Positions 341 through 34,868 of a DNA stretch of 64,000 bases are shown here, one piece after another. Position numbers and translations under genes: made by a program. Source of the DNA: Phycisphaerae bacterium (GTDB lineage Bacteria; Planctomycetota; Phycisphaerae; SM23-33); NCBI GenBank assembly GCA_009783465.1, contig WRDM01000002.1, forward strand, positions 42,097 through 106,096. Direction: 5' to 3'. The notes under the pieces are model-generated. The model had not been told where the DNA came from. It saw only the letters and a program-made list of their open reading frames with translations, and ran no database searches. Each line of letters begins with the position of its first letter. Within the stretch, counting starts at the first letter, position 1.

Positions 341-2011
341 ATGACCACACACAACCTCCAACCCGCGCAGCCGCTCATCCGACGGTATCTGTTCGTCGCG
401 GCGGCCCTGTTGGCGGCGGTGTATCTGGCGTGCGTCAACGACCGCTGGTATCCCACGCCCGACAGCGCCTTGTACGCCGGGCTGGGGCGGTCGCTCGCTG
501 AAGGGCGAGGGTACGTTTTCAATGGCGGAGTGGACAACACGGCCACGCCGGGCCTGCCGGCCGTCATCGCGGCGGCGAGGCTCCTCACCGGCGGCGACGG
601 CTGGTGGGTGTGCAACCTGTTCATCACGGCCTCGGGGTTGGCGGCGTTATTATTCATCCGGGCCGTGTTGCGAAAACTGCTGCCCGCCGACGCGCCGCCA
701 TCGACGAACTCATCGCCGTCACCGCCCACATCACGGCTGCGTGACACGATCGCATCGCCCGCGCCGGCGAAGTTATCCGCCGACCTGGCCACGCTCATGT
801 TGGCCGGCTCGTTTTTGTTCTTCGAGCATTCACACTATATTTTGACGGACATTCCGCTGGTCGCGTTGGCGTGGGCTGCCTTCTATGCCGCGCTGCGGGC
901 GACGCACGGACACTGGGCCTGGCTGGCGCTGGCGGCAGGGCTGTGCGTCGCCGCCATGACGATCCGCGCGCCGATGGCGCCGTTCCTGGCCTTGCTGGCA
1001 ACGGGACTGGTGTTTGGACCGTTGCCATGCGGAACGGTCCGCGAGGGCAAGTTATCCTCGCCACACGCGGGCGAGACGCCCGCGCCACGGGCCGCGCGAC
1101 GGCGTTGGTTCGCCGCCGCCGTGCTGCTGGCGGCCACCGCGGTCCCCTTCGCGTTCTGGTACGTTCTCGGCCGGTCGATCGGACCGCTGCCGTACGTCGA
1201 ATCCGCCACACGGCTGACGGCGGGATTTTTCGCGCGGGCAGGCGAGGCCGCGTGGGCGCAGGCCGGCGTCATGTCCACATTCCTCATCGGCGTGCCCAGC
1301 ATGCCCTGGCTGGGCTTGATCCTCTGGCCGGTGGCGCTGTTGGGATTGGCCGTGCTGTGGCGGGGCTTTTGGCTGGGCCTGCTCGTGCTCGTGCCGTACA
1401 CGCTGTTCATCGCCGTCATCCGCGCTGCCGACAACCCCGATCGCTTCATGCTGCCGGTGGCGCCGCTGGTCTACCTCGGCCTGACGCAGGGCGTCTGGTC
1501 GCTCGCGACGGCGGCAGGCCACCTCGCGCGAGCACGGCGAAATCACGCGACCACCGCGTTGATCGTCCTGACGGCGGCCATCCTGCTCGCCAACGTCGTG
1601 CCGATGGCCAAGTTGGTGCATCGCATGGCCTGGCTGGCCCACACCGACCGCTACGACACCGAGGCCAAACGCGGCTTCGTGGGCGAACACAAAAAAGTCG
1701 CCGAACTCCTCGCCAACGAACTGCCCGAAGAAGGCCGATTCCTCGCCACCCGAGGCCCCGGACGAATCGTGTACTATTACAGCGGGCGACCCTTCATCAC
1801 CCCGCCGCCGCACAATGACGGCCTGCTCGGCCCCGACGATGCACAGGAACTCTGGAACCTCTGGCAGGCAAACCCCGACATCCGCATCGCCGTCCTGCCC
1901 TGGCATGGCCGACAAAAACACCACGCCTACACCGCCCGCATCGCCGAACTCTTCGCCAGCGAACGCGAACTCCACCGCGGCAACACGATGATCGTCTTCG
2001 AACGTCGCTAA
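341..2011 (+). CDS. GT39/ArnT-like membrane glycosyltransferase (PMT_2 family), carries short in-frame palindromic element
   Basis: 556 aa polytopic membrane protein; N-terminal DSALYAGLGRSLAEGRGYVF motif typical of ArnT/PMT family; peptide PHAGETPAPR at nt ~1062-1092 encoded by a copy of the in-frame palindromic element. Confidence 0.55.
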   Translation: MTTHNLQPAQPLIRRYLFVAAALLAAVYLACVNDRWYPTPDSALYAGLGRSLAEGRGYVFNGGVDNTATPGLPAVIAAARLLTGGDGWWVCNLFITASGLAALLFIRAVLRKLLPADAPPSTNSSPSPPTSRLRDTIASPAPAKLSADLATLMLAGSFLFFEHSHYILTDIPLVALAWAAFYAALRATHGHWAWLALAAGLCVAAMTIRAPMAPFLALLATGLVFGPLPCGTVREGKLSSPHAGETPAPRAARRRWFAAAVLLAATAVPFAFWYVLGRSIGPLPYVESATRLTAGFFARAGEAAWAQAGVMSTFLIGVPSMPWLGLILWPVALLGLAVLWRGFWLGLLVLVPYTLFIAVIRAADNPDRFMLPVAPLVYLGLTQGVWSLATAAGHLARARRNHATTALIVLTAAILLANVVPMAKLVHRMAWLAHTDRYDTEAKRGFVGEHKKVAELLANELPEEGRFLATRGPGRIVYYYSGRPFITPPPHNDGLLGPDDAQELWNLWQANPDIRIAVLPWHGRQKHHAYTARIAELFASERELHRGNTMIVFERR

Positions 2012-3312: not shown

Positions 3313-3619
3313 ACCGACTCCTTGCCTGTGTCCTGCACCAGTGTATGACAAATCGAACATGGATGCCATGTGTCGATCAAAAAGATGTCCGGCATGGATA
3401 TGGTTGAGACGACACGCCTGTCCCTCTGTGCACGTCGTCCGCCGCCGACTTCGCATGACGGTGCGCCCTCGGCCAGTGGCGTCAGGCACGAGGAAAGAAT
3501 CCTGAAAACGCCCGAAACCCAGGGCTCGCGGCGTACCGCTCACCCTGGGCTATAGCAGACGCCGCTGACGCGGCTGTGGCCCGGCCCTTCTGCGCCAGAC
3601 CGGGAAGGCCAACCAACTC

Positions 3620-3934: not shown

Positions 3935-4055
3935 GCCTCCTCCGAGAAATACGGGCGTCCGCCGCCTCGCTTCTCCTTGACCCCGTTTGCGACATTATAG
4001 GCCGATGTTCTTCCATTTCTTATGACACAAATGAGAGACCCGTTCGAGGGAAATA

Positions 4056-4197
4056 AGCCAATAGCCAATAGCCAGCAGGTATGGAAAGACAAGGACAAAA
4101 AGGCAAGGAAAGCGGGAACAGGCACATGAGTAACAACATTCAGAATCGTGTGATTTGCAACAAAACCCGCCATACCTTCTGGCTACTGGCTACTGGC
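4056..4197 (+). repeat. operon-hairpin element (OPH family, 'gccagtagccaatagccagtagg...ccatacctactggctactggc'), forward orientation
   Basis: ~28-bp inverted terminal arms flanking ~90-nt conserved core (..acagcgggaaca..atcagaatcgtgtga..); same family as 11024, 12571, 13745, 27752, 28293, 55981. Confidence 0.8.
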
Positions 4198-4358
4198 GAA
4201 ATGATTCCTTCGATCAGATCGCCCGCCCGCGCCACGAGAAATGAAAGCCCTTGTTTTTCCTCTGCCCCATTTGCGAATCCCGTTCGCCGTTCCTACACTG
4301 AGGCCGAGGGCGTCGGCGTGGGGTCGGCGTCGCGTGGGGCGTCTTCGCGGGGGCGGTC

Positions 4359-7300
4359 ATGCTGGGGTTGTCGCGTCGAGCGTTTCTTCAAGTCACCGCC
4401 GGCTCCGCGGGCGCCGTGGCCGCCTCCATGGGCCTGCGACAGGCGGGAAAACTCATCCCCTACGTCGTGCCCCCCGAGGAAATAAAACCAGGCCAGTGGG
4501 CGACCTTCGCGACCACCTGCCGCGAGTGCCCCGCCGGCTGCGGGCTGCACGCGCGGCACCGCGACGGCCGGGCCATCAAAGCCGAAGGCAACCCGCAAAG
4601 CCCCGTCAACCGCGGCGCGCTGTGCGCCCGCGGGCAATCCGCCGTGCAAGGCCTGTACGACCCCGACCGGCTGCGACACCCGCTGCGACGCGTCCACCGC
4701 GACGCGACGCTCGAACACGCCGCCTGGGCCGATGCCATTGCTGCCGTCATCGAAATCCTGAAAAAACCACAGAAAAACGTCCACATTGTCAGCGACTTGC
4801 AAACCGGCGCACTGGCGGAAGTGCAAACCGCCTTCGCCGCACTCCACGGCAGCGAGCCCGTGCTGTACTTCGAGCCGTGCAACTACGAACCGCTTCGCGA
4901 CGCCCACCGCATCGCCCTGGGCCTGGACGCAATCCCGCGATACCGCATCGAGCGAAGCCGCTACATTCTCAGCCTCGGCGCGGACTTCCTCGAAACGTGG
5001 ATCTCGCCCGTGGAGTTCGCTCGCGGCTTCGCAAACGCTCGCGAAATCCGCCCCGCCGAATACGGCCGCGATCCGTACGAGTCGCCGCCGCGCAGGCCCG
5101 GAAAATTGGTATACGTCGGGCCTCGACTGTCCATGACGGCCGCCAACGCGGATGAGTTTTTCCAATGCCAAAGCGGTGCCGAAGGCTGGATTGCCCTGGC
5201 GATTCTTCACGAACTGCTCGCCGCGGATTGGGTGCAAAACCAACGCGACGCGATCGCGGCAGCCGCGAAAATAGTGGGCGCCGAGCACGCGCTCAATCAC
5301 GCGGGGTTAGAAAAATCCACCGTCGCCCGCCTGGCCCACGAGTTCGCCGCCGCGCGCGGCGCGGTCGCGCTGGCGTGTCCGACCGCCGCCACGGGCGATG
5401 CGGCACGATGGGCTTCGCTGGCGGCCATCCTTCTCAACGTCGCCGTCGGCAGCGGCGGCAACGATGCGGAGAACAACGGCGTCATCGTCGATTTCTCGCA
5501 GCCGCACGCGCTGAGCGCCGCCGCCAAACTACGCGAAGTCGCCGATCGGTTGGCCTCGCTGGGGCCAAACGACGTCGTGATTCTGCACAACGCCAACGTG
5601 GCGTTCGCCCTGCCGGCAGCGGCGGCGGGATTACAAAACGCCGCCGCCGTGATTTATCTCGGCCCGCAGCTCGATGAAACCGCCGAACTCGCCGACGTCG
5701 TGCTGCCCACCGATTCGCCTCTGGAAGCCTGGGGCGACTACGAACCGTACGCGGGCATGCACAGCCTGATTCAGCCGACGACGGCCCGGCTGTACAATTC
5801 GCGAAACGCAGGCGACATCCTGCTGGCGCTCGCGCAGGCGACGAACCGCCCGCTCACTCCGCCGTACGCGTCAAGCCCGCCGGAAGATTTCCTGCACTGG
5901 CTGCGGCTGCGATGGCAACATTTTCACCCGCAACACGACTGGCAGGACGCCCTCCGCGCCGGCGGGGAGTTTGACGAGACGCCAGGTGGCGAGATGCCCG
6001 CTTCACGTGACGCGGGCGTCTCGCCCGCGTTGTGTGTTCCACTGTCCTGGCCTATGGAATACAGTAAATCTGTTCCACAGCACAGCGCGGGCAAGATGCC
6101 CGCGAGACACGAGGGCGAGACGCCCTCGTCACGTGAAGCAGACACCCGCGCCGCAGACGACCATTTCCATCTCTGGCTGTGGCCTTCGGTGTTCCTCTTC
6201 GACGGCCGGTCAGCCAACAGGCCGTGGTTGCAGGAGGCGCCCGATCCGACGACCCAGGCCACCTGGAGCAGTTGGGCGGACATGCATCCCGACCGTGCCG
6301 CCGCGCTGGGCCTGCGCGGCGGCGACGCCATTCGCATCCAACTGTACGACGCCACGGACAAATCCGCCGCCATCACCCTGCCCGTGCGAATCACCGCCGA
6401 CGTCGCCGACGACACCCTCGCCGTCGTCCTGGGCCAGGGGCACTGGGCGATGGGCAACACCGCCCGCAACCTCGGCGCCAACGCCTTCCGCCTCCGCCCG
6501 ATTCAACCGACGCGCGACAACTTCCCCGCCGTACGCGTCCGCCGTGCCGCCGGGGCCAATCCATTGTCCTATCATCCAACATCCGCCATGCAGGATCAGC
6601 ATCGCCGCGAACTGCTCCAGTGGACATCACTCGCGCAGGCGTCGGCCGACCCGCCCCCGCCGCGCGACGACGCGTTTCGCATGCCGCTGCCGGAAGGCTA
6701 CCGCACCGACGCCTACGCACCGCACGAACACCGCAACCACCGCTGGGCGATGGCGATCGACCTGCACCGATGCGTCGGCTGTGGCGCGTGCGCGGTCGCG
6801 TGCTACGCGGAGAACAACATCCCCGTCGTCGGGCCCGCCGAAGTGGATCGAGGCCGCGAAATGGCCTGGCTGAAAATCGTCCCCTACCGCTCGCCCCACG
6901 ACGCGGGCCGGCTGGGCTTCCTGCCGATGCTCTGCCAGCACTGCGACGCCGCCCCGTGCGAACCGGTCTGCCCCGTCTACGCGTCCATGCACACCGAGGA
7001 AGGCCTCAACGCCCAAGTCTACAACCGCTGCATCGGCACGCGGTACTGCAACAACAACTGTCCCTACAAGGCCCGGCGGTTCAACTGGTTCGACCGCGAC
7101 TGGCCGGAGTCGTCGCGATGGCAGCACAATCCCGAAGTCACCGTTCGCGAGCGCGGCGTGATGGAAAAATGCACCTTCTGCATTCAGCGAATCCGCCACG
7201 CCCAGCACCGCGCCCTCCGCGAAGACAGGCCGCTGCGAGACGGCGAAATCCAGCCCGCGTGCGTCGCCACCTGCCCGACCTCGGCCATGATCTTCGGCGA

Positions 7301-7427
7301 CCTGCTCCGCGGCGACAGCCTCGTGACACGACTCTTCCGCAACGACCCGCGACGCTACCAGGTGCTGGGGGAATTGAACACCAAACCGGCCGTGGTGTAC
7401 TTGCGGCGTGTGACATGGAACGCCTGA
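4359..7427 (+). CDS. actB: Alternative complex III subunit ActB (Tat-signal, molybdopterin-oxidoreductase-like domain fused to 4Fe-4S ferredoxin domain), with in-frame palindromic element
   Basis: MLGLSRRAFLQ twin-arginine signal; N-terminal MopB-like domain; C-terminal CVGCGACAVAC / CQHCDAAPCEPVCP Fe-S motifs; followed by actC; 44-codon element insert at ~5975-6140. Confidence 0.8.
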   Translation: MLGLSRRAFLQVTAGSAGAVAASMGLRQAGKLIPYVVPPEEIKPGQWATFATTCRECPAGCGLHARHRDGRAIKAEGNPQSPVNRGALCARGQSAVQGLYDPDRLRHPLRRVHRDATLEHAAWADAIAAVIEILKKPQKNVHIVSDLQTGALAEVQTAFAALHGSEPVLYFEPCNYEPLRDAHRIALGLDAIPRYRIERSRYILSLGADFLETWISPVEFARGFANAREIRPAEYGRDPYESPPRRPGKLVYVGPRLSMTAANADEFFQCQSGAEGWIALAILHELLAADWVQNQRDAIAAAAKIVGAEHALNHAGLEKSTVARLAHEFAAARGAVALACPTAATGDAARWASLAAILLNVAVGSGGNDAENNGVIVDFSQPHALSAAAKLREVADRLASLGPNDVVILHNANVAFALPAAAAGLQNAAAVIYLGPQLDETAELADVVLPTDSPLEAWGDYEPYAGMHSLIQPTTARLYNSRNAGDILLALAQATNRPLTPPYASSPPEDFLHWLRLRWQHFHPQHDWQDALRAGGEFDETPGGEMPASRDAGVSPALCVPLSWPMEYSKSVPQHSAGKMPARHEGETPSSREADTRAADDHFHLWLWPSVFLFDGRSANRPWLQEAPDPTTQATWSSWADMHPDRAAALGLRGGDAIRIQLYDATDKSAAITLPVRITADVADDTLAVVLGQGHWAMGNTARNLGANAFRLRPIQPTRDNFPAVRVRRAAGANPLSYHPTSAMQDQHRRELLQWTSLAQASADPPPPRDDAFRMPLPEGYRTDAYAPHEHRNHRWAMAIDLHRCVGCGACAVACYAENNIPVVGPAEVDRGREMAWLKIVPYRSPHDAGRLGFLPMLCQHCDAAPCEPVCPVYASMHTEEGLNAQVYNRCIGTRYCNNNCPYKARRFNWFDRDWPESSRWQHNPEVTVRERGVMEKCTFCIQRIRHAQHRALREDRPLRDGEIQPACVATCPTSAMIFGDLLRGDSLVTRLFRNDPRRYQVLGELNTKPAVVYLRRVTWNA
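5975..6140 (+). repeat. in-frame palindromic element (IPE family) inside actB
   Basis: TCACGTGACGCGGGCGTCTCGCCCGCGTTGTG...CGCGGGCAAGATGCCCGCGAGACACGAGGGCGAGACGCCCTCGTCACGTGA; terminal inverted repeats; near-identical DNA in 8 other genes; encodes ...RDAGVSPALCVPLSW...AGKMPARHEGETPSSRE. Confidence 0.85.
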
Positions 7428-9382
7428 CCTACGCACAAATCGACGATGCCGTTCTCGGCGCGATGGCGCCGGCGAGGCGGCGGTATGTCGTCATCATGCT
7501 CGTGCTGGGCGGGCTTGTGGCGATGTTTTTCACCCTATGGATTCACCAGGCCCGCACGGGCATGGGCGTGGCCGGGATCAACTCGCCGGTCGGCTGGGGC
7601 GTGTACATCGCGTCGTTTGTGTTCTGGGTGGGCATCGCGCACAGCGGGACGTTGATTTCCGCCATCCTGCACCTGGTCCGCGCGAAATGGCGCACCGCGG
7701 TGGCCAGGTCCGCCGAGGCCATGACGATTTTCGCCGTCATGACCGCGGGGCTGTTCCCGCTGATCCACCTCGGTCGGGTGGGCGTGTTTTATTACATTCT
7801 GCCGTACCCGACCACGCGGCAGATTTACCCGAATTTCCTCAGCCCGCTGGTGTGGGACGTCGTGGCCATCTCGACCTACTTCACGGTCAGCCTGGTCTTC
7901 TGGTATGTCGGCCTGCTGCCGGATCTGGCCAGCGCCCGCGACCGCTGGCACCGCCTGGTCGGCCCCCATCACCCGCGCACGCGATTCTATCACGCCCTGG
8001 CCATGGGATGGTCCGGCAGCGGCAACCAGTGGCGGCATCACGGGCGGGCATACCTGTTCTTCGCCGCCCTGGCCACGCCATTGGTCATCAGCGTGCATTC
8101 GGTCGTCTCGTGGGATTTCGCGATGTCCATCCTGCCGGGATGGCACACGACGATGTTTCCGCCGTACTTCGTCGCCGGGGCCATTCACTCGGGACTGGCC
8201 ATGGTTATCGTGCTCCTGCTGCCGATGCGGAAACTTCTGCGGCTGGAAAGCCTCGTCACCGACTGGCACTTCGACTGCCTGGCCAAGACCCTCCTCGTCA
8301 CCACGTGCATCATGGGCTATTCGTATATCATCGAGCCGTTCACCGCCTGGTACAGCGGCAACGTGATCGAGCGGCAATTCATCCACTGGCGGGCGTTCGG
8401 CGACACCTGGCTGACGCCGGGCTACTGGTCGATGTGGCTGCTGAACGTCATCGTTCCGCTGGCGTTTTTCGTGCCCCGCCTCCGCCGCAGTCCCACCGCG
8501 CTGATGCTCATTTCCCTTGGCATCACGATCGGCATGTGGCTGGAGCGCGGCGTGATCGTGCCGGCAAGCCTCGCCCACGACTTCATGCCCCACGCCTGGG
8601 GCCAATACGTCCCCAGGCCAATCGAATGGGGAATTCTCCTGGGCTCGTTCGGCTGGTTTTTCTTCTGGTTTTTCGGCTTCGCGAAATTTTTACCGACCAT
8701 CGCGGCGAACGAGGTGAAAGAAGAAACGCATCGCGATGGCTTGCCGGCACCACGTGACGCGGGCGTCTCGCCCGCGTTGTGCGCTCCATGTGACTGGCTA
8801 CTGGAAAACGCCAAGTCGTCTTCAACATCGGACGCGGGCAAGATGCCCGCGAGACACGAGGACGAGACCCCCGCGTCACGTTACGTCTGGGGAACATTCG
8901 ACACGCCCGCCGCGTTGATCGCCGCCGTGCGGCAACTGCGTGACGACGGCGTGACGGGCATGGAGACGTACACGCCGTTTCGGTTACAGGAGGTGGAAAA
9001 ACTGCTCGGACGCGGCCCCAGCCCGGTGCGGCTGTGGACGTTGGCGGGCGCGTTGGCGGGCGCGGCGGGCGGATTCGCGTTGGCGATCGGCCTGGCGGCG
9101 ATTAACGGGCTTGTCGTCGGCGGGCGGATTTCCTACGCCGTCATCGTGCCGTACTGCGTGATCGCTTTCGAAGGCACGATCCTGCTGGGCGTGCTGGCGA
9201 ACGTGACGGGATTGTTTTTTCATGGCCGCCTCGGCAGCGCGAGGCCGTTGCCGCGCGGATACGTCCGGCGGATTTCGGAAGACCGTTTCGGCCTGCTCAT
9301 CCCGTGTGATCGCGAGCAGGTCGGCGCGATGCGGGAGCGGCTGAGCACCCTGTGCGCGGAGGCGATCCATGTCGTCGAATGA
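7415..9382 (+). CDS. actC: Alternative complex III ActC (NrfD-like polytopic subunit) fused in-frame to ActD via a palindromic element linker
   Basis: Starts MERLTYAQIDDAVLGAMAPARRRYVV (ATG overlapping actB stop); ~10 TM NrfD/PsrC-like body; after element (8749-8883) reading frame continues into YVWGTFDTPAALIAAVRQLRDDGV... (ActD/DUF3341-like) with C-terminal TM; no stop or restart between. Confidence 0.7.
   Translation: MERLTYAQIDDAVLGAMAPARRRYVVIMLVLGGLVAMFFTLWIHQARTGMGVAGINSPVGWGVYIASFVFWVGIAHSGTLISAILHLVRAKWRTAVARSAEAMTIFAVMTAGLFPLIHLGRVGVFYYILPYPTTRQIYPNFLSPLVWDVVAISTYFTVSLVFWYVGLLPDLASARDRWHRLVGPHHPRTRFYHALAMGWSGSGNQWRHHGRAYLFFAALATPLVISVHSVVSWDFAMSILPGWHTTMFPPYFVAGAIHSGLAMVIVLLLPMRKLLRLESLVTDWHFDCLAKTLLVTTCIMGYSYIIEPFTAWYSGNVIERQFIHWRAFGDTWLTPGYWSMWLLNVIVPLAFFVPRLRRSPTALMLISLGITIGMWLERGVIVPASLAHDFMPHAWGQYVPRPIEWGILLGSFGWFFFWFFGFAKFLPTIAANEVKEETHRDGLPAPRDAGVSPALCAPCDWLLENAKSSSTSDAGKMPARHEDETPASRYVWGTFDTPAALIAAVRQLRDDGVTGMETYTPFRLQEVEKLLGRGPSPVRLWTLAGALAGAAGGFALAIGLAAINGLVVGGRISYAVIVPYCVIAFEGTILLGVLANVTGLFFHGRLGSARPLPRGYVRRISEDRFGLLIPCDREQVGAMRERLSTLCAEAIHVVE
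8749..8883 (+). repeat. in-frame palindromic element (IPE family) at actC/actD junction
   Basis: CCACGTGACGCGGGCGTCTCGCCCGCGTTGTG...GACGCGGGCAAGATGCCCGCGAGACACGAGGACGAGACCCCCGCGTCACGTT; encodes PRDAGVSPALCAPCDWLLENAKSSSTSDAGKMPARHEDETPASR. Confidence 0.85.
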
Positions 9383-10508: not shown

Positions 10509-11017
10509 CGAGTCATCGCCCCGCCGCCGTGCTCGCGCTGGTGCTCTTCCTGACGCTGCTGGCCGCGGCGGCGGTGTATTTCCTGCCCTGGCCCGCCGCC
10601 ATCGGACCGGCCCAACCCGTCGCGTTCAGCCATCGCGTCCACGCGGGCGTCAAACAGATCAGTTGCATCTTCTGCCACCCCGGCGTGATCGACGGCCCGC
10701 ACGCCACCGTGCCGCCCGTGGCCAAGTGCATGCTCTGCCACCAGAAAATCATTCCGAAACACCCGGAAATCGTCAAAATCCGCCAGGCCTACGAACGCGA
10801 CACGCCCATCGCGTGGGTCAAAGCAAACGACGTCCCCGAGTTCGTCTACTTCACACACGAGCGGCACATTCGCGAGGGCATCGACTGCGGCCGATGCCAC
10901 GGCAACGTCACCGCCATGGATCGCCTCGCCGCCGCGACCGAACTGAACATGGGTTTCTGCATCCCCTGCCACCGGGACAACAAGGCGAGTGTGGATTGCT
11001 ATGTGTGCCATAGGTAG
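10505..11017 (+). CDS. actA: Alternative complex III ActA, membrane-anchored pentaheme cytochrome c
   Basis: N-terminal TM helix; five CxxCH motifs (CIFCH, CMLCH, CGRCH, CIPCH, CYVCH); start overlaps actF stop. Confidence 0.7.
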   Translation: MTSHRPAAVLALVLFLTLLAAAAVYFLPWPAAIGPAQPVAFSHRVHAGVKQISCIFCHPGVIDGPHATVPPVAKCMLCHQKIIPKHPEIVKIRQAYERDTPIAWVKANDVPEFVYFTHERHIREGIDCGRCHGNVTAMDRLAAATELNMGFCIPCHRDNKASVDCYVCHR

Positions 11018-11023
11018 GGAAGA

Positions 11024-11172
11024 AGCCAGTAGCCAATAGCCAGTAGGTATGGAACGGCATCGGCAAAAAACAACGACAGCGGGAACAGATAACGATGCGG
11101 CCAAAATCAGAATCGTGTGTTTTGCAACTGGCTTCGCCATACCTACTGGCTACTGGCTATTGGCTACTGGCT
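11024..11172 (+). repeat. operon-hairpin element (OPH family), forward orientation, between actA and ccoN
   Basis: agccagtagccaatagccagtaggtatggaacggcatcggcaaaaaacaacgacagcgggaacagataacgatgcggccaaaatcagaatcgtgtgttttgcaactggcttcgccatacctactggctactggctattggctactggct. Confidence 0.85.
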
Positions 11173-11192: not shown

Positions 11193-12593
11193 ATGAATCG
11201 ACGACAAACCATCTTCCGCAAACCCAACTCCGCCGCGTTGGCCTGGCTTCTCGCCGGCGCGGTGTGGTTTGCCATGGGGACGACCTGGGGGCTGTTTTCG
11301 GCGGCCCATCTCATCGCGCCGGAATTGTTCGATAATATTAGCTGGCTGGTATTCGGGCGGACCAGGCCTGTGCATGTCAACACGGTGATTTTCGGATTCG
11401 TCGCGCCCATGTTGATCGGGGCGGCGCTGCATTACGTGCCCGCCCTGCTCAAAACGAGGCTGTGGTCCGAGCCGCTGGGCTGGCTTGCCTGGCTGGCGTG
11501 GAACGCCGCCGTCGCCAGCGGATTCATCCTGCTGCCGCTGGGCATCACGCAGGGCCGGGAGTACGCCGAGTATATTTTCCCCTTCGACGTGTGCATCATG
11601 GTCGCGCTGGTGCTGCTGATCGTGAATCTGGTGATGACCATCGCCACCCGCCGCGAGCCGCTGCTGTATGTGAGCGTGTGGTACGTGGTGGGCATGGCCG
11701 TGTGGACGGCAGGCGTGTATCCGATCGGCAACGTGATGTGGCAGCCCGCCACCGGCGCGATGCCCGGCGTGCTGGACTCGATTTTCCTGTGGTTTTACGG
11801 CCATAATCTCGTCGGCCTGCTGCTGACGCCGCTGGCGACCGCGGCGGCGTATTTCGTCGTCCCCCGCGTCACGCGCACGCCGCTCTACAGCCACACGCTC
11901 AGCCTGGTGGGCTTCTGGATCCTGCTGACGCTCTACACGCACATCGGGGCGCACCACCTTCTCCAGGCGCCGGTGCCGAATTGGCTCAAGACCCTCTCCG
12001 TCGTCGATTCCATGGCCATGATGCTGCCGGTTTTCACCGTGCTGATGAATCTCTGGCTGACCGCGCGAGGCCGGGGCGGCAGGCTGTGGCGCGACGTCGG
12101 CGGGCGGTTCGTGATGTTCGGGCTGATCCTGTATTTCGTCACCTGCGTGCAAGGCCCGCTGCAAAGCCTGCCCAGCGTGCAGCGTGTCACGCACTTCACC
12201 AACTGGACGATCGGCCACGCGCACATCGCCGTGCTGGGATTCGCGGGGTTCATCGCGCTGGGGGCGATGTGGCACACGCTGCCGGGCATCCTCGGCCGTC
12301 GGCTGTTTTCGACCCGACTCGTCAGCGTCCAGTTCGGCCTGCTGATGACGGGCGTGGTGGGCTTCTTCCTCGTGCTGTCGATCGCAGGCCTGGTGCAGGG
12401 TACCAACTGGGCCAACGGCAACGTGGAATACAACACCCTGCCGATGATGCCCCCCTACATGATCCTCCGCGGCGCGATGGGCCTGCTGATCGTCACCGCC
12501 GCGTGGGTAGGGCTGTACAACTGCGTGAAAACGATACGCCGTAAGGAACGTGCAACCGAGTTGGCGACAAAGCCAGTAGCCAATAGCCAGTAG
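11193..12593 (+). CDS. ccoN: cbb3-type cytochrome c oxidase subunit I (CcoN)
   Basis: 466 aa, 12 TM; HLIAPELFDNISWLVFGRTRPVHVNTVIFGF and FLWFYGHNLVGLLLTPL match CcoN signature helices; last 7 codons (KPVANSQ*) are supplied by the OPH repeat arm. Confidence 0.75.
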   Translation: MNRRQTIFRKPNSAALAWLLAGAVWFAMGTTWGLFSAAHLIAPELFDNISWLVFGRTRPVHVNTVIFGFVAPMLIGAALHYVPALLKTRLWSEPLGWLAWLAWNAAVASGFILLPLGITQGREYAEYIFPFDVCIMVALVLLIVNLVMTIATRREPLLYVSVWYVVGMAVWTAGVYPIGNVMWQPATGAMPGVLDSIFLWFYGHNLVGLLLTPLATAAAYFVVPRVTRTPLYSHTLSLVGFWILLTLYTHIGAHHLLQAPVPNWLKTLSVVDSMAMMLPVFTVLMNLWLTARGRGGRLWRDVGGRFVMFGLILYFVTCVQGPLQSLPSVQRVTHFTNWTIGHAHIAVLGFAGFIALGAMWHTLPGILGRRLFSTRLVSVQFGLLMTGVVGFFLVLSIAGLVQGTNWANGNVEYNTLPMMPPYMILRGAMGLLIVTAAWVGLYNCVKTIRRKERATELATKPVANSQ

Positions 12594-12720
12594 GTAAGGC
12601 ACGACATTGGCGAAACGGCAGTGACAGCGGGAACGGATACAAAAATGGCAACGGCCAGGATCGTATGACTGGCGACAGGCTTCGCCATACCTACTGGCTA
12701 TTGGCTATTGGCTACTGGCT
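12571..12720 (+). repeat. operon-hairpin element (OPH family), forward orientation, overlapping ccoN stop codon
   Basis: agccagtagccaatagccagtaggtaaggcacgacattggcgaaacggcagtgacagcgggaacgg...ggatcgtatgactggcgacaggcttcgccatacctactggctattggctattggctactggct. Confidence 0.85.
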
Positions 12721-13744: not shown

Positions 13745-13889
13745 AAGCCACAAGCCACTAGCCACCAGCCACGAGGTAAGGAACGACAACGGCGAAATGA
13801 CAATGAACGCGGGAATAAATACGAACATGGCGATAATTTGTGATCGTGTAATTCACAACAGATTTCGCCATACCTGGTAGCTAGTGGCT
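13745..13889 (+). repeat. operon-hairpin element (OPH family, 'ccacaagccactagccac' arm variant), forward orientation
   Basis: aagccacaagccactagccaccagccacgaggtaaggaacgacaacggcgaaatgacaatgaacgcgggaataaat...gatttcgccatacctggtagctagtggctt. Confidence 0.75.
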
Positions 13890-14090: not shown

Positions 14091-14142
14091 CAATCAGGAC
14101 AATCGCATGTGCATGCCTTATTCCACACAGGATTCGCATTTC

Positions 14143-14254
14143 GGCGCCACTGGCCACAGGCCCTGCCATTTTGCGTTGTCGATCGTTGTGACAGACGAAG
14201 CGTTCAGTCGCTCACACCGTCTTACAACGCAAAATGGCAGGGCCTGTGGCCAGT
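14143..14254. repeat. large perfect-ish palindrome (BPAL family, 'ggcgccactggccacaggccctgccattttgcgttg...caacgcaaaatggcagggcctgtggccagtg')
   Basis: ~35-bp arms around ~40-nt core; family copies at 34674, 36198, 62041 and shorter variants at 19001, 33165, 58334. Confidence 0.8.
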
Positions 14255-14347
14255 GATGCCGAGTACGAAGGTCACGCGAAAACCGGAAAATATACATGCG
14301 TTCGCCCTGGAGTAGCCATCACCTATACTGTATTGGGGGAGCGTCGC

Positions 14348-14630: not shown

Positions 14631-15038
14631 ATGGCCAAAACCTTCGAAGAGTATCGCGTGCTTTCTCAACCGGCGGCGTGGGCGTTGCTGTTTCTGCTGG
14701 CCGGTGGCATTCTCGCGTGGGGCCTGTTCGTGAAATCCGTCATTCCCAACACACCGCGCGTCCACAACTACGGCGCCCTGCCCGACGCACCGGGACAATC
14801 CATCTACTCCACAAACCCCACGCCGCGCGACACCACCGCACCGCCGCAATATCAAACGCTCCCCGAAGCCAAACGTGACGCGGGCGTCTCGCCCGCGTTG
14901 TGCGTTCCATTGGCCGAGGCACCGGAAAACGATCTCTCGACTTCGCCATCCGGCACGGGCAAGATGCCCGCGGGACACGAGGGCGGGACGCCCTCGTCAC
15001 GTGAGACGCCCACATCACACGCAGAGGCGTCGCCATGA
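14631..15038 (+). CDS. small membrane protein whose C-terminal third is encoded by an in-frame palindromic element
   Basis: N-terminal TM (AWALLFLLAGGILAWGLFV); C-terminal ...AKRDAGVSPALCVPLAEAPENDLSTSPSGTGKMPAGHEGGTPSSRETPTSHAEASP*; stop overlaps next start (ATGA). Confidence 0.35.
   Translation: MAKTFEEYRVLSQPAAWALLFLLAGGILAWGLFVKSVIPNTPRVHNYGALPDAPGQSIYSTNPTPRDTTAPPQYQTLPEAKRDAGVSPALCVPLAEAPENDLSTSPSGTGKMPAGHEGGTPSSRETPTSHAEASP
14874..15004 (+). repeat. in-frame palindromic element (IPE family) forming the C-terminus of a small membrane protein
   Basis: AAACGTGACGCGGGCGTCTCGCCCGCGTTGTG...CACGGGCAAGATGCCCGCGGGACACGAGGGCGGGACGCCCTCGTCACGTGA. Confidence 0.85.
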
Positions 15039-18982: not shown

Positions 18983-19000
18983 AGTAGACTACACTTTCGC

Positions 19001-19090
19001 GATGGCTCCGCCGGTTTGCGCTGTAGAACGTTGTGGACTACAAAACATTTTTTTGTACGCAACGTTCTACAACGCAAACCGGCGGAGCCA
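19001..19090. repeat. palindrome (short BPAL variant: gcgatggctccgccggtttgcgctgtagaacg...cgttctacaacgcaaaccggcggagccat)
   Basis: Between murG and ftsW; related copies at 33165-33230 and 58334-58423. Confidence 0.8.
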
Positions 19091-19104
19091 TATCAACCAT
19101 TCGT

Positions 19105-21727: not shown

Positions 21728-21731
21728 TCTC

Positions 21732-21840
21732 GTTAACCCGGTAACTGGTTAACTAGTTGACTAGTTAACTGGTTGACTGGTCCCTTCGCCAAACGGTTCC
21801 TCTTCACTAGTTAACCAGTTAACGAATTAACCAGTTAACA
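21732..21840. repeat. GTTAAC-rich palindromic repeat (ggttaactagttgactagttaactggttgac...ctagttaaccagttaacgaattaaccagttaac)
   Basis: Family copies at 192-240, 25311-25400, 42461-42522. Confidence 0.75.
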
Positions 21841-21909
21841 AAAATGCTTCCCTCGAACAACCGGTTCACCTTCACCCACACGCTTCGCAAATCCTACGTG
21901 GCTGCGTGG

Positions 21910-23454
21910 CTACGTAGCCGCCGCTCCAAAACGTACGATCGGTCCAACCAGGCGCTCCATCGCCATGCCTCGCGAGCCTTTGATCAGGATCGTGTCGCCC
22001 GCTCGCAGCAGCGCGGGCAAGGCCTCGATGGCGGACTCGACGGAATCGAACTCCGCCGTCCGCGCCGTCGCGCCCGCCGACGCGGCGCCTCGCGCGATAT
22101 ATCGTCCCAACAGGCCGATTCCAATGAGAAAATCCACCCGCCCAGACGCGATCTCCCTGCCCGTCCGTTCGTGCAGCGAAATCGTCGACTCGCCAAGCTC
22201 TCGCATGTCGCCGGCGATCATCACGCGACGCGCGCCCGGCTGGTCGCCCAGCACGTCCGCGGCCGCGGCCATGCTGGCGGGGTTGGCGTTGTACGCGTCG
22301 TTAATCAGCCGCACGCTGCCGGCGGGCACGGCCTCCAGCCGCATCTCCACGCCACCGAAATCCGCCAACGCCGCCGCCGCGTCCTCCGCGCTCACGCCCA
22401 GACACGCCGCGGCCGCCATCGCCGCCGTCGCGTTGCTCGCACTGTGACGTCCCGGCTGCGGCAACACCACGCGCACGTCCCGCCCGCCAACGCGAACGGA
22501 AAACCGCACGCAGTCCGCGCCACCCTCGAAATCCACCAGCCGCCAATGGGCATCCGCCGACTGGCCAAACCATGTCACCGCCGCTCCACCCGTCGCCGCA
22601 ACCGCTTCGCGACGCAACGACTCGTTGTCCGCCCACACCACCGCCTGGCCCGCTCCGCGCAGCCCTGCGTAGCTCAACGAGCGAAGCAGGGACGCCTTCT
22701 CCTTCGCCACCAATTCCAGGCTGCCAAGTTTTTCCAGGTGCGTCTCGCCCACCGACGTAATCACGGCCACGTCGGGCCGGCAGATCTCGCCCAATTGCGT
22801 GATCTCGCCCGGCGCGTTCGTACCGACCTCGCACACGACGTACTGATCGCACTCGCCAACGCCCAACAGCGTCAGCGGCACGCCGATGTTGTTATTAAAA
22901 CTCTTCGGACTGCACGTTCCGTGTAAACGTGACGCGGGCGTCCCGCCCGCGACACGACTCAGAATGTGATGCAACATCCGCTTGGTGGTCGTCTTTCCGT
23001 TGGACCCCGTGACGGCGATCACGCGGGCGGGCATCGCGTCGCGGTGCCACCGTCCCAGCCTGCCCAACGCCGCCAGCGTGTCCGACACGCCAATCAACCG
23101 ATCGCCAAACCGCCGCGCCAAATCAGCCGGCAGCGGCACGCGAACATCCACCAGCGCCCCGCCCGCGCCGGCGGCGAACGCCTGCGGAAGAAAATCGTGC
23201 GCGTCGAATGTCTCGCCCTTGATCGCGATAAACAACGGCCCGTCCGGCCCAATCTTCCGACTGTCCATTTCGACGGCCTCGACACTCACCGCCGCCAGCG
23301 AACGTACGGCAGCGCTGGCGACATTCACATCCGCGCCGGCGCAGTCCGCGCCAGGCCACCAGAACGATTGGCCGTCCACGATTTTTCGAATGTCTTCCAG
23401 CGACGTCCGCTTCATAACAACACACCTGGCAATACATTCTGCTATCACATCCAA
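21910..23454 (-). CDS. murF: UDP-N-acetylmuramoyl-tripeptide--D-alanyl-D-alanine ligase, carrying a partial in-frame palindromic element
   Basis: Mur ligase domains (GSNGKTTTK P-loop, NNNIGVPLTLL); peptide SRVAGGTPASRLHG encoded by element fragment at 22927-22956. Confidence 0.8.
   Translation of the reverse strand: MDVIAECIARCVVMKRTSLEDIRKIVDGQSFWWPGADCAGADVNVASAAVRSLAAVSVEAVEMDSRKIGPDGPLFIAIKGETFDAHDFLPQAFAAGAGGALVDVRVPLPADLARRFGDRLIGVSDTLAALGRLGRWHRDAMPARVIAVTGSNGKTTTKRMLHHILSRVAGGTPASRLHGTCSPKSFNNNIGVPLTLLGVGECDQYVVCEVGTNAPGEITQLGEICRPDVAVITSVGETHLEKLGSLELVAKEKASLLRSLSYAGLRGAGQAVVWADNESLRREAVAATGGAAVTWFGQSADAHWRLVDFEGGADCVRFSVRVGGRDVRVVLPQPGRHSASNATAAMAAAACLGVSAEDAAAALADFGGVEMRLEAVPAGSVRLINDAYNANPASMAAAADVLGDQPGARRVMIAGDMRELGESTISLHERTGREIASGRVDFLIGIGLLGRYIARGAASAGATARTAEFDSVESAIEALPALLRAGDTILIKGSRGMAMERLVGPIVRFGAAAT
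22927..22956 (-). repeat. in-frame palindromic element fragment (single hairpin unit) inside murF
   Basis: acgtgacgcgggcgtcccgcccgcgacacg. Confidence 0.7.
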
Positions 23455-23465
23455 TGCCTACACGA

Positions 23466-23704
23466 CCGCTTGATTCTTTTAGCCCCGGCAGGGGCGCCTT
23501 GGGTAGCCCAGGGTGAGCCGTACTCGGCGAACCCTGGGGACAAGGCGTTTCATTCCGTCCAAGCCCCGTAGGGGCGCCTTGGATTCTCGCAACCTCCAAG
23601 GCGCCCCTGCCGGGGCTTTTTCTTCTTGGGCCGCTATCCCAGGGTTCGCGGAGTACCGCTCACCCTGGGCTACCCAAGGCGCCCCTTCCGGGGCTTGATA
23701 CCGG
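23466..23704. repeat. complex inverted repeat in murF-murE spacer (arms gccccggcaggggcgccttgggtagcccagggtgagccgtactcggcgaaccctgg / ccagggttcgcggagtaccgctcaccctgggctacccaaggcgccccttccggggc with inner hairpin)
   Basis: ~55-nt arms at 23466-23530 and 23640-23704; partial copy at 3518-3556. Confidence 0.75.
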
Positions 23705-23759: not shown

Positions 23760-25304
23760 TCATCGTTTCACCAACATCTCGCGCACCACTTCGGCATCAT
23801 CAAAATGATGTTTGGTTTCCTCGACAATCTGGTACGTTTCGTGCCCTTTGCCGGCTAACAAAATCACGTCGCCTTCGCGGGCGTGCTGAATCACCCGCTC
23901 GATCGCCTTGCGGCGGTCGGGTTCGACGTGCGTTTTGGCCAGGCCTGCCGGTGTGAAGCCGGCGAGGATTTCGTCGATGATCGCGCGGGGGTCTTCCGTT
24001 CGCGGGTTGTCGCTGGTGACGACGACGGCGTCAGCAAGTTCTTCTGCCACGCGGGCCATCCGAGGCCGTTTGAGTCGGTCGCGATCGCCGCCACAGCCGA
24101 ACATCACGATCAGCCGCCCCCGCGTCACGGGCCTGACCGCCGACAGCACGTTCGCCATCGCGTCGTCCGTATGAGCGTAATCCACGTACACCGTGAACGG
24201 CGCGTCCACCGGCACGCGGTCAAGCCGCCCCGGCACGCGAACGCCCTTCGTCAACGTCGAGGCGATCACGTCCCACGACACGCCCAACCCGCGACAAATA
24301 CCCGCCGCCGCGAGACCGTTCCGCACGTTGTGCTTGCCGATCAGCGGGCTGGCAATCATGATCTCACGTGACGCGGGCGTCTCGCCTGCGTTGTGCGTGC
24401 CATGGGATTGGCCATTAGAAGACGTCAAACCGTCTTCGCCCGACGCGGGCAAGATACCCGCGTCACGCATCACAAACTCCGTGCCGCGGTCGCTGATGTC
24501 GCGAATCACAGCGCCGAGCGTTCTCGGCCCGTCCAGGCCGTAACTCACCACACGGCCTCGCGTCACCGCCGCCATCGCCTCGCCCGACGGATCGTCAAAA
24601 TTAATCACCGCCGTCGCGGAGGCGGGCAACTCCGCAAAGAGAATCCGCTTGGCCGCGAGATAATTCGCCATCGTCTTGTGATAGTCCAAATGCTCGCCGG
24701 TCAAATTCGTGAACGCCGCCGCCGCGTACTCCACGCCGGCCACCCTGCCCTGATCCAGCGCGTGCGACGACACCTCCATCACCAGGTGCGTTCGACCGGC
24801 CTGTACCATCTCGGCCATCATCTCCGCCAAGTCCACCGCGCCGGGCGTGGTGTTGTTGGCCTCGACGCTGGTTTTTCCGGTTTCGTAGGCAATCGTGCCC
24901 AGCAGCGCCGGCCGATGGCCCGCCGCCTCCAGGATCGCCCGCACCAGCAGCGTGATGGTGCTTTTTCCCTTCGTGCCCGTCACGCCGATGTTGATCAACT
25001 TCCGCGCCGGCCAGCCGTGAAACGCCTGCGCCATCGGCCCGAGCGCCCGCGCGGAACTCGACACCACAGCCCACGGCACGGACGCGGGCACGGCAGCGGC
25101 ATCCTCGCACACCACCGACGTCGCCCCGCCCGCCAACGCCGCCGCGATAAAATCATGCCCATCCACCACAGGCCCGCGCACGGCCACGAAACACGCCCCC
25201 GCGGCGCAGCGTCGCGAGTCGCTCACCAGCGAGGCCACAGGCCCGTCGCCGCGGCGAACGACCACGTCCACCCCCGCCGATGCCAACAATTCCGACAGAC
25301 GCAT
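23760..25304 (-). CDS. murE: UDP-N-acetylmuramoyl-L-alanyl-D-glutamate--2,6-diaminopimelate ligase, carrying in-frame palindromic element
   Basis: Mur ligase domains (GVTGTKGKSTIT P-loop, DNPRTEDP); internal ...SSNGQSHGTHNAGETPASREIMIA... encoded by element at 24364-24469. Confidence 0.85.
   Translation of the reverse strand: MRLSELLASAGVDVVVRRGDGPVASLVSDSRRCAAGACFVAVRGPVVDGHDFIAAALAGGATSVVCEDAAAVPASVPWAVVSSSARALGPMAQAFHGWPARKLINIGVTGTKGKSTITLLVRAILEAAGHRPALLGTIAYETGKTSVEANNTTPGAVDLAEMMAEMVQAGRTHLVMEVSSHALDQGRVAGVEYAAAAFTNLTGEHLDYHKTMANYLAAKRILFAELPASATAVINFDDPSGEAMAAVTRGRVVSYGLDGPRTLGAVIRDISDRGTEFVMRDAGILPASGEDGLTSSNGQSHGTHNAGETPASREIMIASPLIGKHNVRNGLAAAGICRGLGVSWDVIASTLTKGVRVPGRLDRVPVDAPFTVYVDYAHTDDAMANVLSAVRPVTRGRLIVMFGCGGDRDRLKRPRMARVAEELADAVVVTSDNPRTEDPRAIIDEILAGFTPAGLAKTHVEPDRRKAIERVIQHAREGDVILLAGKGHETYQIVEETKHHFDDAEVVREMLVKR
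24364..24469 (+). repeat. in-frame palindromic element (IPE family) inside murE (opposite orientation to host gene)
   Basis: TCACGTGACGCGGGCGTCTCGCCTGCGTTGTG...GACGCGGGCAAGATACCCGCGTCACG. Confidence 0.85.
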
Positions 25305-25310
25305 GTTTTC

Positions 25311-25400
25311 GTTAACTGGTGAACTCGTTAACTCGTTAACTGGTTAACTCGTTGGCGCACGTCGCAACTTCACGAGTCAACCAGTTAACGAATCAACGAA
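25311..25400. repeat. GTTAAC-rich palindromic repeat
   Basis: gttaactggtgaactcgttaactcgttaactggttaactcgttgg...cgagtcaaccagttaacgaatcaacg. Confidence 0.75.
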
Positions 25401-25523: not shown

Positions 25524-25716
25524 CAAGCCACTAGCCATCAGCCACTAGCCACCAGGGTTTTCGTGACTCGGCTGTAAAATCGCTCCTCCTGTTCGAGAGA
25601 GTGATCTCGTGGCTTCGCTGACTCGTAGATCAATTCTCACACGCACACCAGCAGTATGCCCTGGCTTCTGGAAAGCTTCGCCCTACCTTGTGGCTTGTGG
25701 CTAGTGGCTTGTGGCT
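25524..25716. repeat. divergent OPH-type element (gccactagccatcagccactagccacc...ccttgtggcttgtggctagtggcttgtggctg)
   Basis: Shares arm motifs with OPH family but core not conserved. Confidence 0.55.
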
Positions 25717-27751: not shown

Positions 27752-27896
27752 AAGCCAGTAGCCAATAGCCAGTAGCCACAAGGTATGGTAAAGCCTGTTA
27801 CGAATCATCCGATCTTGAACTTCGCCACGTTCGTGTCTATTCCCGCTTTCACTGCCATTTCGCCACCGACGTTCCTTACCTTGTGGCTAGTGGCTG
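27752..27896 (-). repeat. operon-hairpin element (OPH family), reverse orientation, between ftsI and ftsL-like gene
   Basis: Reverse complement aligns with forward copies (..ggtaaggaacgtcggtggcgaaatggcagtgaaagcgggaataga...ctttaccataccttgtggctactggc). Confidence 0.85.
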
Positions 27897-28277: not shown

Positions 28278-28292
28278 AACCGCTCCGACAAC

Positions 28293-28436
28293 AGCCAGTA
28301 GCCATCAGCCAATAGCCAGTAGGTATGGCCACGCCTGATGTCGATCACACGATCCAGATCTTGGCTACCTGTACACCCGTTCCCGCTGCCGCTGCCATTT
28401 CGCCGACGTCGTGCCGTACCTATTGGCTACTGGCTA
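28293..28436 (-). repeat. operon-hairpin element (OPH family), reverse orientation
   Basis: acagccagtagccatcagccaatagccagtaggtatggccacgcctgatgtcgatcacacgatcc...gttcccgctgccgctgccatttcgccgacgtcgtgccgtacctattggctactggctac. Confidence 0.85.
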
Positions 28437-28445
28437 CATCAACCG

Positions 28446-34520: not shown

Positions 34521-34673
34521 TCCTTATGGTTTGAAACGCCGACAATGCAATAACGAAAATGGAGGACACCCTGATTGTACCCCGTCTGGCCAAAACGTCA
34601 AGCGGCGAAATGGGCGGATTCAGGGCAAACGCATGTGTATTTTCCGGTTTGCTACGTGACCTTTGTGGTTGGC

Positions 34674-34786: not shown

Positions 34787-34868
34787 ACGTGCGAAAATCA
34801 GCGAACAGCCAGGGAAACTACATTGCGTTTGCCCTGTGGGCGGTTTTTATGTGGCGGGGCGGGGCGGT

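Follow-up and report, generated by a model that had tools for sequence, protein, structure and literature searches.

How does one and the same GC-rich palindrome come to lie, in frame, inside a series of unrelated protein-coding genes? The question is raised by a 64,000-nucleotide stretch of a Phycisphaerae bacterium genome (phylum Planctomycetota), which we call the window and which was analyzed over its full length. Such a palindrome lies within the gene for ActB (region 5975-6140; TCACGTGACGCGGGCGTCTCGCCCGCG ... CGCGGGCAAGATGCCCGCGAGACACGAGGGCGAGACGCCCTCGTCACGTGA), and the first-pass annotation of this DNA listed it together with eight other sites and compared the family to the Rickettsia palindromic elements (RPEs). 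Our analysis suggests that the inserts are of the type known as repetitive extragenic palindromes (REPs) and their paired, hairpin-forming doublets (REPINs), that is, non-autonomous mobile elements mobilized by a RayT transposase and tolerated by their hosts as translated loops. We give this explanation a probability of roughly 80%.

A hairpin repeat family inside protein-coding genes

A repeat search of the window recovers a single hairpin-unit family at all nine of the annotated sites. Four copies extend over 130 nt (6005-6134, 8752-8881, 14873-15002, and 35325-35454) and show 75-81% identity to the reference copy, a fifth is shorter (24365-24467), and the remaining, shorter members lie at 1041-1089, 22925-22956, 45914-45988, and 62699-62866. 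A composite palindrome of ~135 nt is present at five of the nine sites, and the copies have diverged to 74-84% identity. The family is real and lies far above chance: the pattern CRYGGRCNNSNYRYCCRYG has 36 strand-matches on the two strands of the window, where 0.26 are expected (0 of 100 shuffles). Rfam, at its gathering threshold, reports tRNA only in the window. A tenth match to the pattern, at 52553-52579 in hflX, is a chance hairpin and not a member of the family.

All nine sites fall within continuous stop-free coding frames, and, as the first-pass annotation had stated, no copy brings a stop codon into any of the nine host frames. The hosts are ActB, a natively fused ActC-ActD, a small open reading frame (ORF), MurF, MurE, a glycosyltransferase family 4 (GT4) enzyme, RibD, a GNAT ORF, and a PMT-like ORF (Table 1). 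High-GC DNA does contain many long spurious ORFs, one of which (7537-8757) misled the first ActC call, and homology support is lacking for two hosts (341-2011, 14631-15038) and for the N-terminal portion of the GNAT host, so one might suppose that the inserts are not in mature proteins at all, being parts of spurious ORFs, of pseudogenes, or of an assembly artefact of the metagenome bin. However, the codon-position GC (GC3 > GC1 > GC2) points to the same strand and frame on either side of eight of the nine sites and is continuous across the inserts. In ActB, ActCD, MurF, MurE, GT4, and RibD, the insert is flanked on both sides by homology in one frame to solved structures or curated families (Pfam, NCBIfam, PDB). 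An independent gene caller run on the source contig (ENA ERZ27257304 k141_871801, 103,997 nt) gives the same gene calls, identical or orthologous gene-plus-insert structures occur in independent NCBI, JGI, and ENA assemblies, and murE, murF, and ribD are conserved biosynthetic genes that are otherwise intact. The copies are thus found in real coding frames, and their absence from the proteins appears extremely improbable to us. The ninth site (14873) is in the C-terminal tail of a 135-aa ORF, the stop of which overlaps the next start as ATGA.

Units, tags, and stems

The unit from which these elements are built is a 19-nt GC-rich stem-loop with an 8-bp stem, a 3-nt loop (TCT/TCC or AGA/GGA), and a 5' GT-tag. 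Tag and stem go together, GTAG/GTAA being found with CAYGGGC stems and GTGN (GTGA/GTGG/GTGT/GTGC) with CGNGGNC stems. When units are chosen by their stem alone, GT occupies positions -4/-3 in all but about five of 212, and when they are chosen by tag, left arm, and loop, leaving the right arm unused, a perfect 7-bp stem is present in 176 of 209. Among 81 distinct units, 96% of the cells pair, compared with 31-55% in slid controls, and four of the eight pairs show double-sided compensation (105 cells; 0 of 500 shuffles). The stem is kept by compensatory changes, and it is therefore base pairing, rather than the encoded amino acids, that is conserved.

Units follow one another with a period of 24 nt and are set in inverted arrays around a spacer. 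The ActB composite, for example, has a left unit GTGA-CGCGGGCGTCTCGCCCGCG (tag at 6007), a 56-nt spacer, and two right units ending in TCAC. As single-stranded DNA, the five composite copies of the window fold end to end, with minimum free energies of -32.7 to -52.5 kcal/mol and z-scores of -4.3 to -9.6, the ActB insert forming one long hairpin (z = -9.6). The same inverted architecture is seen in 36 copies from metagenomes, and no direct repeats flank the five window copies. On sequence grounds, the units are best classed as GTAG-type REPs arranged in REPIN-like inverted doublets.

RayT genes flanked by the same units

The connection to a transposase comes from loci of related Planctomycetota. 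A MurE homolog of 772 aa (P0202; L037 111-2429) is MurE read through REPs into a downstream RayT gene, homologs of which are named "REP element-mobilizing transposase RayT" by JGI. On one side of this RayT stand GTAG-CATGGGCGTCCCGCCCATG / GTAG-CACGGGCATCTTGCCCGTG, and on the other inverted units (CACGGGCGGGACGCCCGTG-CTAC). The RayT of L043 is flanked by CGCGGGC units with GTGT/ACAC tags and that of L044 (Zavarzinella sp.) by GTAG-CACGGGC units, and these two sets of flanking units are the window's two sub-families. From these loci we infer mobilization by a RayT, a gene for which may be present in the source genome as well.

Stop-free REPs can lead gene callers to fuse neighboring genes, as in the L037 MurE-RayT product. 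In L043 (9163-13230), the RayT and its REPs lie between fragments of a valyl-tRNA synthetase gene, and the same assembly has a split rho gene.

Insertion sites and their history

The identity of the ActB host is given by Pfam, NCBIfam, and four solved structures of alternative complex III (ACIII). Its insert region is ~44-46 residues longer than that of the solved ActB chains, and in orthologs at ~50% identity the ~55 element-encoded residues of the window protein give way to a short, variable linker. A 75%-identical ortholog (P0002) has a shorter version of the same element in the same place; between such orthologous inserts the hairpins are identical, while the spacers have diverged. One further ACIII locus (L042, P0003), apparently rearranged or chimeric, was used for alignment only.

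The second copy had been placed at an actC/actD junction, and our results require a different description. It lies inside a single 655-aa ORF, residues 29-441 of which match ActC and residues 491-631 ActD, and the caller run on the source contig likewise reports a 655-aa NrfD+ActD protein. Among 1.8 billion representatives searched, fused ActCD homologs (630-680 aa) occur commonly, with an unrelated and variable linker at this point. Because element-free fused proteins are common in the clade, the element at 8750-8884 is an insert in a native ActC-ActD linker. Two other accounts were ruled out: codon-position GC together with NCBIfam and Pfam favors the frame 7415-9382, running through the element, over an ActC ORF (7537-8757) that ends on the element's TGA, and the commonness of element-free fusions in the clade excludes that the element itself fused ActC to ActD.

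MurE offers the clearest comparison of filled and empty sites. An 81%-identical MurE (P0123) and many other MurE orthologs have an empty site (RFDGGGGDESMEM), a 77%-identical one (P0122) carries a longer element, another (P0147) has a single unit at the same site, and in a more distant one (P0168, 55%) this loop holds another array built from units of this type. The AlphaFold2 model of the window MurE has a mean predicted local distance difference test (pLDDT) score of 92.9, and its sole stretch below 50, residues 290-307, falls inside the insert, which is modeled as coil between strands 274-281 and 313-319 and is thus predicted to be a disordered loop. In MurF, VAGGTPAS lies in the loop after the P-loop helix, which is ~8 residues longer than in E. 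coli MurF (1GG4). The first-pass annotation called this copy a fragment, but it is a solo hairpin, and a relative (L039) has a full multi-unit element exactly at its site. A second full element, missing from the window protein, occupies the beta-hairpin loop of this relative's MurF that corresponds by homology to the MurE site. At the second MurF site the window (22470-22490, minus strand) reads GGCGGGCGGGACGTGCGCG, in which 16 of 19 positions match the hairpin unit by eye; it adds no length compared with E. coli MurF and may be a decayed solo relic or a coincidence. In both MurE and MurF, comparison of filled with empty sites suggests that the element replaces a few native loop residues.

These comparisons agree with two expectations of the first-pass annotation. 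The encoded peptides are absent from distant orthologs and from the 81%-identical MurE, and the inserts occupy surface or permissive positions, namely, the modeled MurE loop, the MurF loop as compared with 1GG4, the variable linker of ActB, and the inter-domain linker of ActCD. In GT4, RibD, and the other hosts, a permissive position is likely.

Four insert sites (ActB, MurE, MurF, and GT4) are held in common with a relative of 69-77% protein identity, and because of this the insertions are old and inherited, evolving in situ by gain and loss of units. The proposal of a genome-wide burst is contradicted by these shared sites and by the 74-84% identity among copies. Mobility shows in presence and absence at orthologous sites (the MurE site holds an element in the window and in P0122 but none in P0123 and other orthologs; at the second MurF site, L039 alone has one), although without a phylogeny this pattern does not separate gain from loss.

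Location, length, and reading frame of copies in relatives

To extend the comparison beyond the window, species-representative genomes were scanned with the 23-nt unit and metagenomes with the unit-spacer junction, 70 metagenome pattern matches without an adjacent unit being dropped as chance. The former scan gave a Planctomycetaceae metagenome-assembled genome (MAG) rich in arrays and single matches in Kiritimatiellae, Opitutaceae, and other bins. The latter gave 36 composite elements in 27 unit-bearing loci, 26 of which are contigs of the JGI metagenome Ga0123353, which holds the ~75% relative. A Tepidisphaeraceae MAG, DASRRR01 (L002, L012, L018, L022, L035, L036), carries an identical GTGA-CGCGGGCGTCTCGCCCGCG hairpin, which is single and followed by T-runs, at sites that mostly were not assigned to a continuous ORF; this single hairpin resembles an intrinsic terminator.

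The elements do not avoid coding DNA: some half to two thirds of the copies are intragenic. Continuous stop-free frames contain 16 of the 31 multi-unit elements of the Planctomycetaceae MAG, 20 of the 36 multi-unit clusters of the metagenome loci, and 29 of the 44 composite elements of the window and metagenome loci taken together, where random segments of the same loci fall in stop-free frames at fractions of 0.38-0.51. Within genes, the DAGVSPA / AGETPA frame is used almost exclusively, and the Arg-rich frame, although usually open (stop-free in 68% of readings), almost never. In a first set of 29 intragenic elements, 88 of 95 units are in the phase that encodes A-G-x-x-P-A, seven encode GRDARA, and none is Arg-rich; all 44 forward units have the first stem base on codon position 3 (DAGVSPA), as do 44 of the reverse units (AGETPA), the other seven reverse units being those in the GRDARA phase. 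Of the 67 units in a second set, 57 share the A-G-x-x-P-A phase, and a single forward unit is in the Arg-rich one. The hairpin is thus a codon palindrome, as the first-pass annotation proposed, in which a first stem base at codon position 3 gives A-G-x-x-P-A in both orientations. The open Arg-rich frame has probably been selected against.

Lengths also run in steps of three. Measured from the left unit to the first unit on the right, the spacing is 72, 75, 78, or 99 nt in 27 of 28 copies inside genes and in 12 of 14 not classed as intragenic. These values, like the unit period of 24 nt, are multiples of three. The composite also occurs in head-to-tail tandem arrays, with periods of 126 nt in L085 (at least four copies) and L067 and of 99 nt in L072, all multiples of three. 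Intragenic composites have a preferred direction, the "GEDGLTSS...THNAGETPA" orientation being found in 24 of 29 and the other in five.

Could it be the repeated peptide that is selected, as a linker, a disordered segment, or an interaction motif, with the DNA repeat as a by-product? The near-exclusive use of one reading frame, the orientation bias of 24 to 5, the 3-nt length steps, which hold even in copies not classed as intragenic, and the retention of inserts at the same sites in relatives of 69-77% protein identity would all be in line with this. However, compensated changes in the stem turn AGVSPA into EGVSPS, TGVPPV, MGVSPM, or ADILSA, the hosts are functionally unrelated, and the same units are found in intergenic DNA, beside transposase genes, and in a terminator-like setting in Tepidisphaeraceae. 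Close orthologs do without the insert, and the MurE insert is predicted to be disordered. We find selection on the peptide a highly doubtful origin for the family.

RayT-mediated mobilization or recombination

In the mechanism that we favor, the elements would be mobilized as single-stranded DNA by a RayT (HUH Y1) transposase. Their tolerance in genes would follow from a period and spacers in multiples of three and from a unit that gives A-G-x-x-P-A in the same phase in either orientation; this frame is free of stops and encodes small flexible residues, and the surviving copies sit in loops, linkers, and tails. Once inserted, as the comparison of orthologs shows, they persist for long periods, adding or losing whole units in frame until some are reduced to solo hairpins.

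Several points weigh against this account. Classic REPs are almost exclusively extragenic, a habit from which the window family departs. Motif and tblastn searches for RayT in the window, L001-L036, and L153 returned REP-encoded peptide matches only, and the 5.5 kb upstream of the window and the REP-bearing loci of the two related populations likewise yielded no RayT gene. That the inserts are translated into the host proteins is deduced from the open frames and the integrity of the genes. Neither a target-site duplication nor a clean insertion boundary is seen when filled and empty MurE and MurF sites are compared, and the identical hairpins with diverged spacers of the ActB orthologs could reflect gene conversion as well as selection.

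The last two of these points also favor an alternative in which the family spread and was homogenized mainly by recombination (gene conversion between copies, slipped-strand or template-switch events at hairpins, and unequal exchange of 24-nt units), RayT being a mere neighbor. The gain and loss of whole units in situ, the solo hairpins, the 126-nt and 99-nt tandem arrays, and the repeated hits on one loop across MurE lineages and on its paralogous counterpart in MurF would be accommodated by it too. Yet the copies are in unrelated genes, without flanking homology to seed recombination, and the conserved 5' GT-tag beside the hairpin is the signature of an HUH/Y1 transposase substrate. RayT genes are flanked by exactly such units in three genomes, and transposition of the IS200/IS605 type makes no target duplication, the absence of which is therefore expected. 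We consider recombination an unlikely main agent of spread, and mobilization by RayT remains our preferred explanation.

Comparison with known repeat systems

A study of REPs across bacteria (Di Nocera et al. 2013; BMC Genomics 14:522, PMC3733652) defined the GTAG- and CGTC-tagged super-families and noted REP families and RayTs in Planctomycetes (R. baltica). Most REPs in that study are intergenic; intragenic ones were reported in several species, mostly Opitutus terrae and R. conorii. Those of R. conorii are RPE-4 and RPE-6, which are CGTC-tagged, for R. baltica, the one planctomycete tabulated, small hypothetical ORFs alone are given, and O. terrae has ~70 intragenic GTAG-REP events in real genes (Additional file 3 of the same study). 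The peptides given there for O. terrae GTAG-19 (GTGVPPV, HGRDARAT, TGGTPVP, WHGRPAR, and VARASRP) are five-frame translations of GT(A/G)G-CACGGGCGTCCCGCCCGTG, a stem-loop that is present in the RibD insert of the window (GTAG-CACGGGCGTCCCGCCCGTG; tag at 45941, 19-mer of the stem-loop at 45946-45964). Drawn from these peptides, identity of the window unit with GTAG-19 at the DNA level is probable. The O. terrae REPs GTAG-17/-18/-19 are likewise GC-rich stem-loops with a GTAG-type tag, occur as singles and inverted dimers, are RayT-associated, belong to a host of the Planctomycetes-Verrucomicrobia-Chlamydiae (PVC) group, and lie in frame in real genes. The window family differs in that its host is a Phycisphaerae (Planctomycetota) MAG, in that the dominant subfamily has CGCGGGC stems with GTGN tags and is assembled, around a conserved spacer, into a ~135-nt composite, in its intragenic fraction of about half to two thirds, as opposed to the mostly intergenic published REPs, and in its nearly exclusive use of one frame, where O. 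terrae uses several, including Arg-rich ones.

The likeness to RPEs drawn by the first-pass annotation is accurate as far as behavior goes, since RPEs too are palindromic, in frame, and stop-free in many unrelated genes and add extra peptide segments in permissive regions of proteins. RPE-1 and other Rickettsia palindromic elements, the subject of work by Ogata et al. in 2000 and 2002, reportedly lie in frame in unrelated, often essential genes. The hosts, however, are unrelated, as the sequence families probably are too, and RPE-4/-6 have CGTC tags where the window family has GT-tags. In addition, relatives of the window genome have a cognate RayT with units on its flanks, and the elements here consist of 24-nt hairpin units whose gain and loss keep the frame. 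With their GTAG/GTGN tags and the RayT-flanking hairpins of relatives, the inserts in these conserved genes are better described as RayT-associated REPs/REPINs than as RPEs.

The REPIN-RAYT systems of Pseudomonas and Enterobacteria (Bertels & Rainey 2011, PMC3116915; Nunvar et al. 2010) share with the window family the inverted doublets that form a long hairpin, a RayT flanked by the same REPs, and a long-lived, vertically inherited presence with diversification within the genome. They are extragenic by definition and by observation, whereas the family described here is mostly intragenic, with lengths in multiples of three. [quoted passage not shown]

The window family is thus a RayT-type REP/REPIN family of a sort already known in PVC genes, and not a new category. 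This qualifies the novelty first claimed for it: the same behavior has been published for O. terrae, of a sister phylum within PVC, and for Rickettsia, and what stands is that literature searches found no report of in-gene translated REPs in Planctomycetota. With it, a phenomenon seen in Verrucomicrobia and Rickettsia now includes Planctomycetota, and RPE-like behavior, selfish palindromes translated within essential genes, is tied directly to the RayT/REP system in a lineage that is free-living and high in GC. The family also bears on the annotation of PVC genomes and MAGs, in which protein lengths are inflated, low-complexity loops confuse alignments and domain models, and gene callers are made to fuse neighbors, as in the 772-aa "MurE" that continues into RayT.

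Where the window family goes beyond published cases is in its high intragenic fraction, its near-exclusive frame, and the 3-nt periodicity of unit and spacer lengths, features that suggest, but do not prove, adaptation to coding DNA. Has a REPIN lineage, then, become specialized for coding sequence, so that, by propagating itself, it supplies PVC proteomes with disordered loops and linkers and persists across species of only 69-77% protein identity, rather than being a REP that genes now and then tolerate? We raise this tentatively, as a possibility with somewhat less than even odds, because of the 24-nt period, the 3-nt spacer steps, the A-G-x-x-P-A reading in both directions, the use of one frame, and the lack of depletion from genes. 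If such a codon-periodic and frame-biased architecture holds genome-wide, it would make a clean natural system in which to study the adaptation of mobile DNA to coding sequence and how proteins gain new loops and linkers.

Remaining hosts in the window

The five other hosts are listed with those above in Table 1. In the GT4 enzyme, the element precedes the "LVVAIAGQG" strand of the C-terminal Rossmann half, and a 69%-identical ortholog (L094) has an element at the same site, internally part frame-shifted. In RibD, the RibD_C domain is stretched, the gap between its aligned blocks being ~35 residues longer than in solved RibD. A minus-strand ORF at 45113-46279 was rejected as host of this site, having no family match; the real gene is that on the plus strand. 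The RibD ORF runs ~170 residues past RibD_C and has a Pfam LPD3 domain at aa 448-551 (E = 8e-17), and it represents an uncommon fusion or else two genes read through as one.

The GNAT-associated element consists of two GTAA/GTCG-tagged CAYGGGC units, a 72-nt spacer, and two inverted units ending in CTAC. It is situated between an unassigned N-terminal part and the GNAT domain, its right arm being read in the HGRDAHAAHGQDARAT frame; profile searches gave no homology support for the N-terminal 164 aa belonging to the same protein. The ORF at 341-2011 is called on the source contig, as annotated, and its label as GT39 reduces to a sub-threshold PMT (GT39-like) match, the sole match found. The caller run on the source contig also reports the ORF at 14631-15038, as a gene of 135 aa; it has no family match, and its coding status is the weakest of the nine.

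Table 1. Inserts of the hairpin family and their host ORFs in the window (TM, transmembrane segment)
Host	Insert	Strand	Element	Host ORF (strand)	Location in host	Encoded peptide
PMT-like	1041-1089	+	perfect unit 1066-1084, degenerate unit 1041-1060	341-2011 (+), 556 aa		REGKLSSPHAGETPAPR
ActB	5975-6140	+	composite palindrome 6003-6137, preceded by degenerate units 5975-6002	4359-7427 (+)		ETPGGEMPASRDAGVSPALCVPLSWPMEYSKSVPQHSAGKMPARHEGETPSSRE
ActC-ActD	8750-8884	+	composite	7415-9382 (+), 655 aa	linker	PRDAGVSPALCAPCDWLLENAKSSSTSDAGKMPARHEDETPASR
Small one-TM ORF	14871-15005	+	composite	14631-15038 (+)	C-terminal tail, codons ~81-125 of 135	
MurF	22925-22956	-	solo hairpin CGCGGGCGGGACGCCCGCG-TCAC (- strand)	21910-23454 (-)		VAGGTPAS
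MurE	24363-24469	+	shortened composite	23760-25304 (-)	~aa 280-313	RDAGILPASGEDGLTSSNGQSHGTHNAGETPASR (- strand)
GT4	35323-35457	+	composite	34869-36113 (-)	~aa 220-263	
RibD	45912-45990	+	three units (one reverse, two forward)	45140-46846 (+)	aa 257-283	HNAGETPAPRSTGVPPVSRMGVSPM
GNAT	62699-62866	+	symmetric element	62209-63345 (+)		

Other repeats in the window

The window holds several further repeats. A second, unrelated set of near-perfect long palindromes (CTGGCCACAGGCCCTGCCAGTTTGCGTTG...) lies at 14141-14262, 36198-36345, and 62036-62173, with arms of 45-64 nt that are 84-100% complementary; related copies are at 18995-19094, 58334-58423, and 34621-34836, and the set looks like another REPIN/MITE-like family. 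The murF-murE spacer (23481-23695) contains a 58-nt inverted repeat with 95% complementarity, of which a related copy is found at 3506-3575, and a separate, perfect 55-nt inverted repeat is located at 41485-41606.

Tandem arrays of an 8-nt unit (GTTAACTN / CTCGTTAAC) occur at 188-226, 21729-21847, 25308-25397, and 42458-42496, two of them just past the ends of the murF and murE ORFs, and might be arrays of protein-binding sites. A repeat of ~100-150 nt whose arms have a 7-nt period (AGCCAGTAGCCA... / ...TGGCTACTGGCT) is present in both orientations, at 4049-4205, 11017-11172, 12564-12720, 13746-13889, 25526-25702, 27753-27895, 28290-28437, and 55976-56133. Finally, minus-strand ORFs carry at their 3' ends a repeated 71-nt block (31687-31757, 33361-33431, 36493-36563, 38056-38126, and 41620-41690). 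Translated by eye, the reverse complement of the block gives PIPEPVTMSLLALGGLALLRRRR*, a PEP-CTERM-type sorting signal, and the host ORFs would therefore encode paralogous exported proteins.

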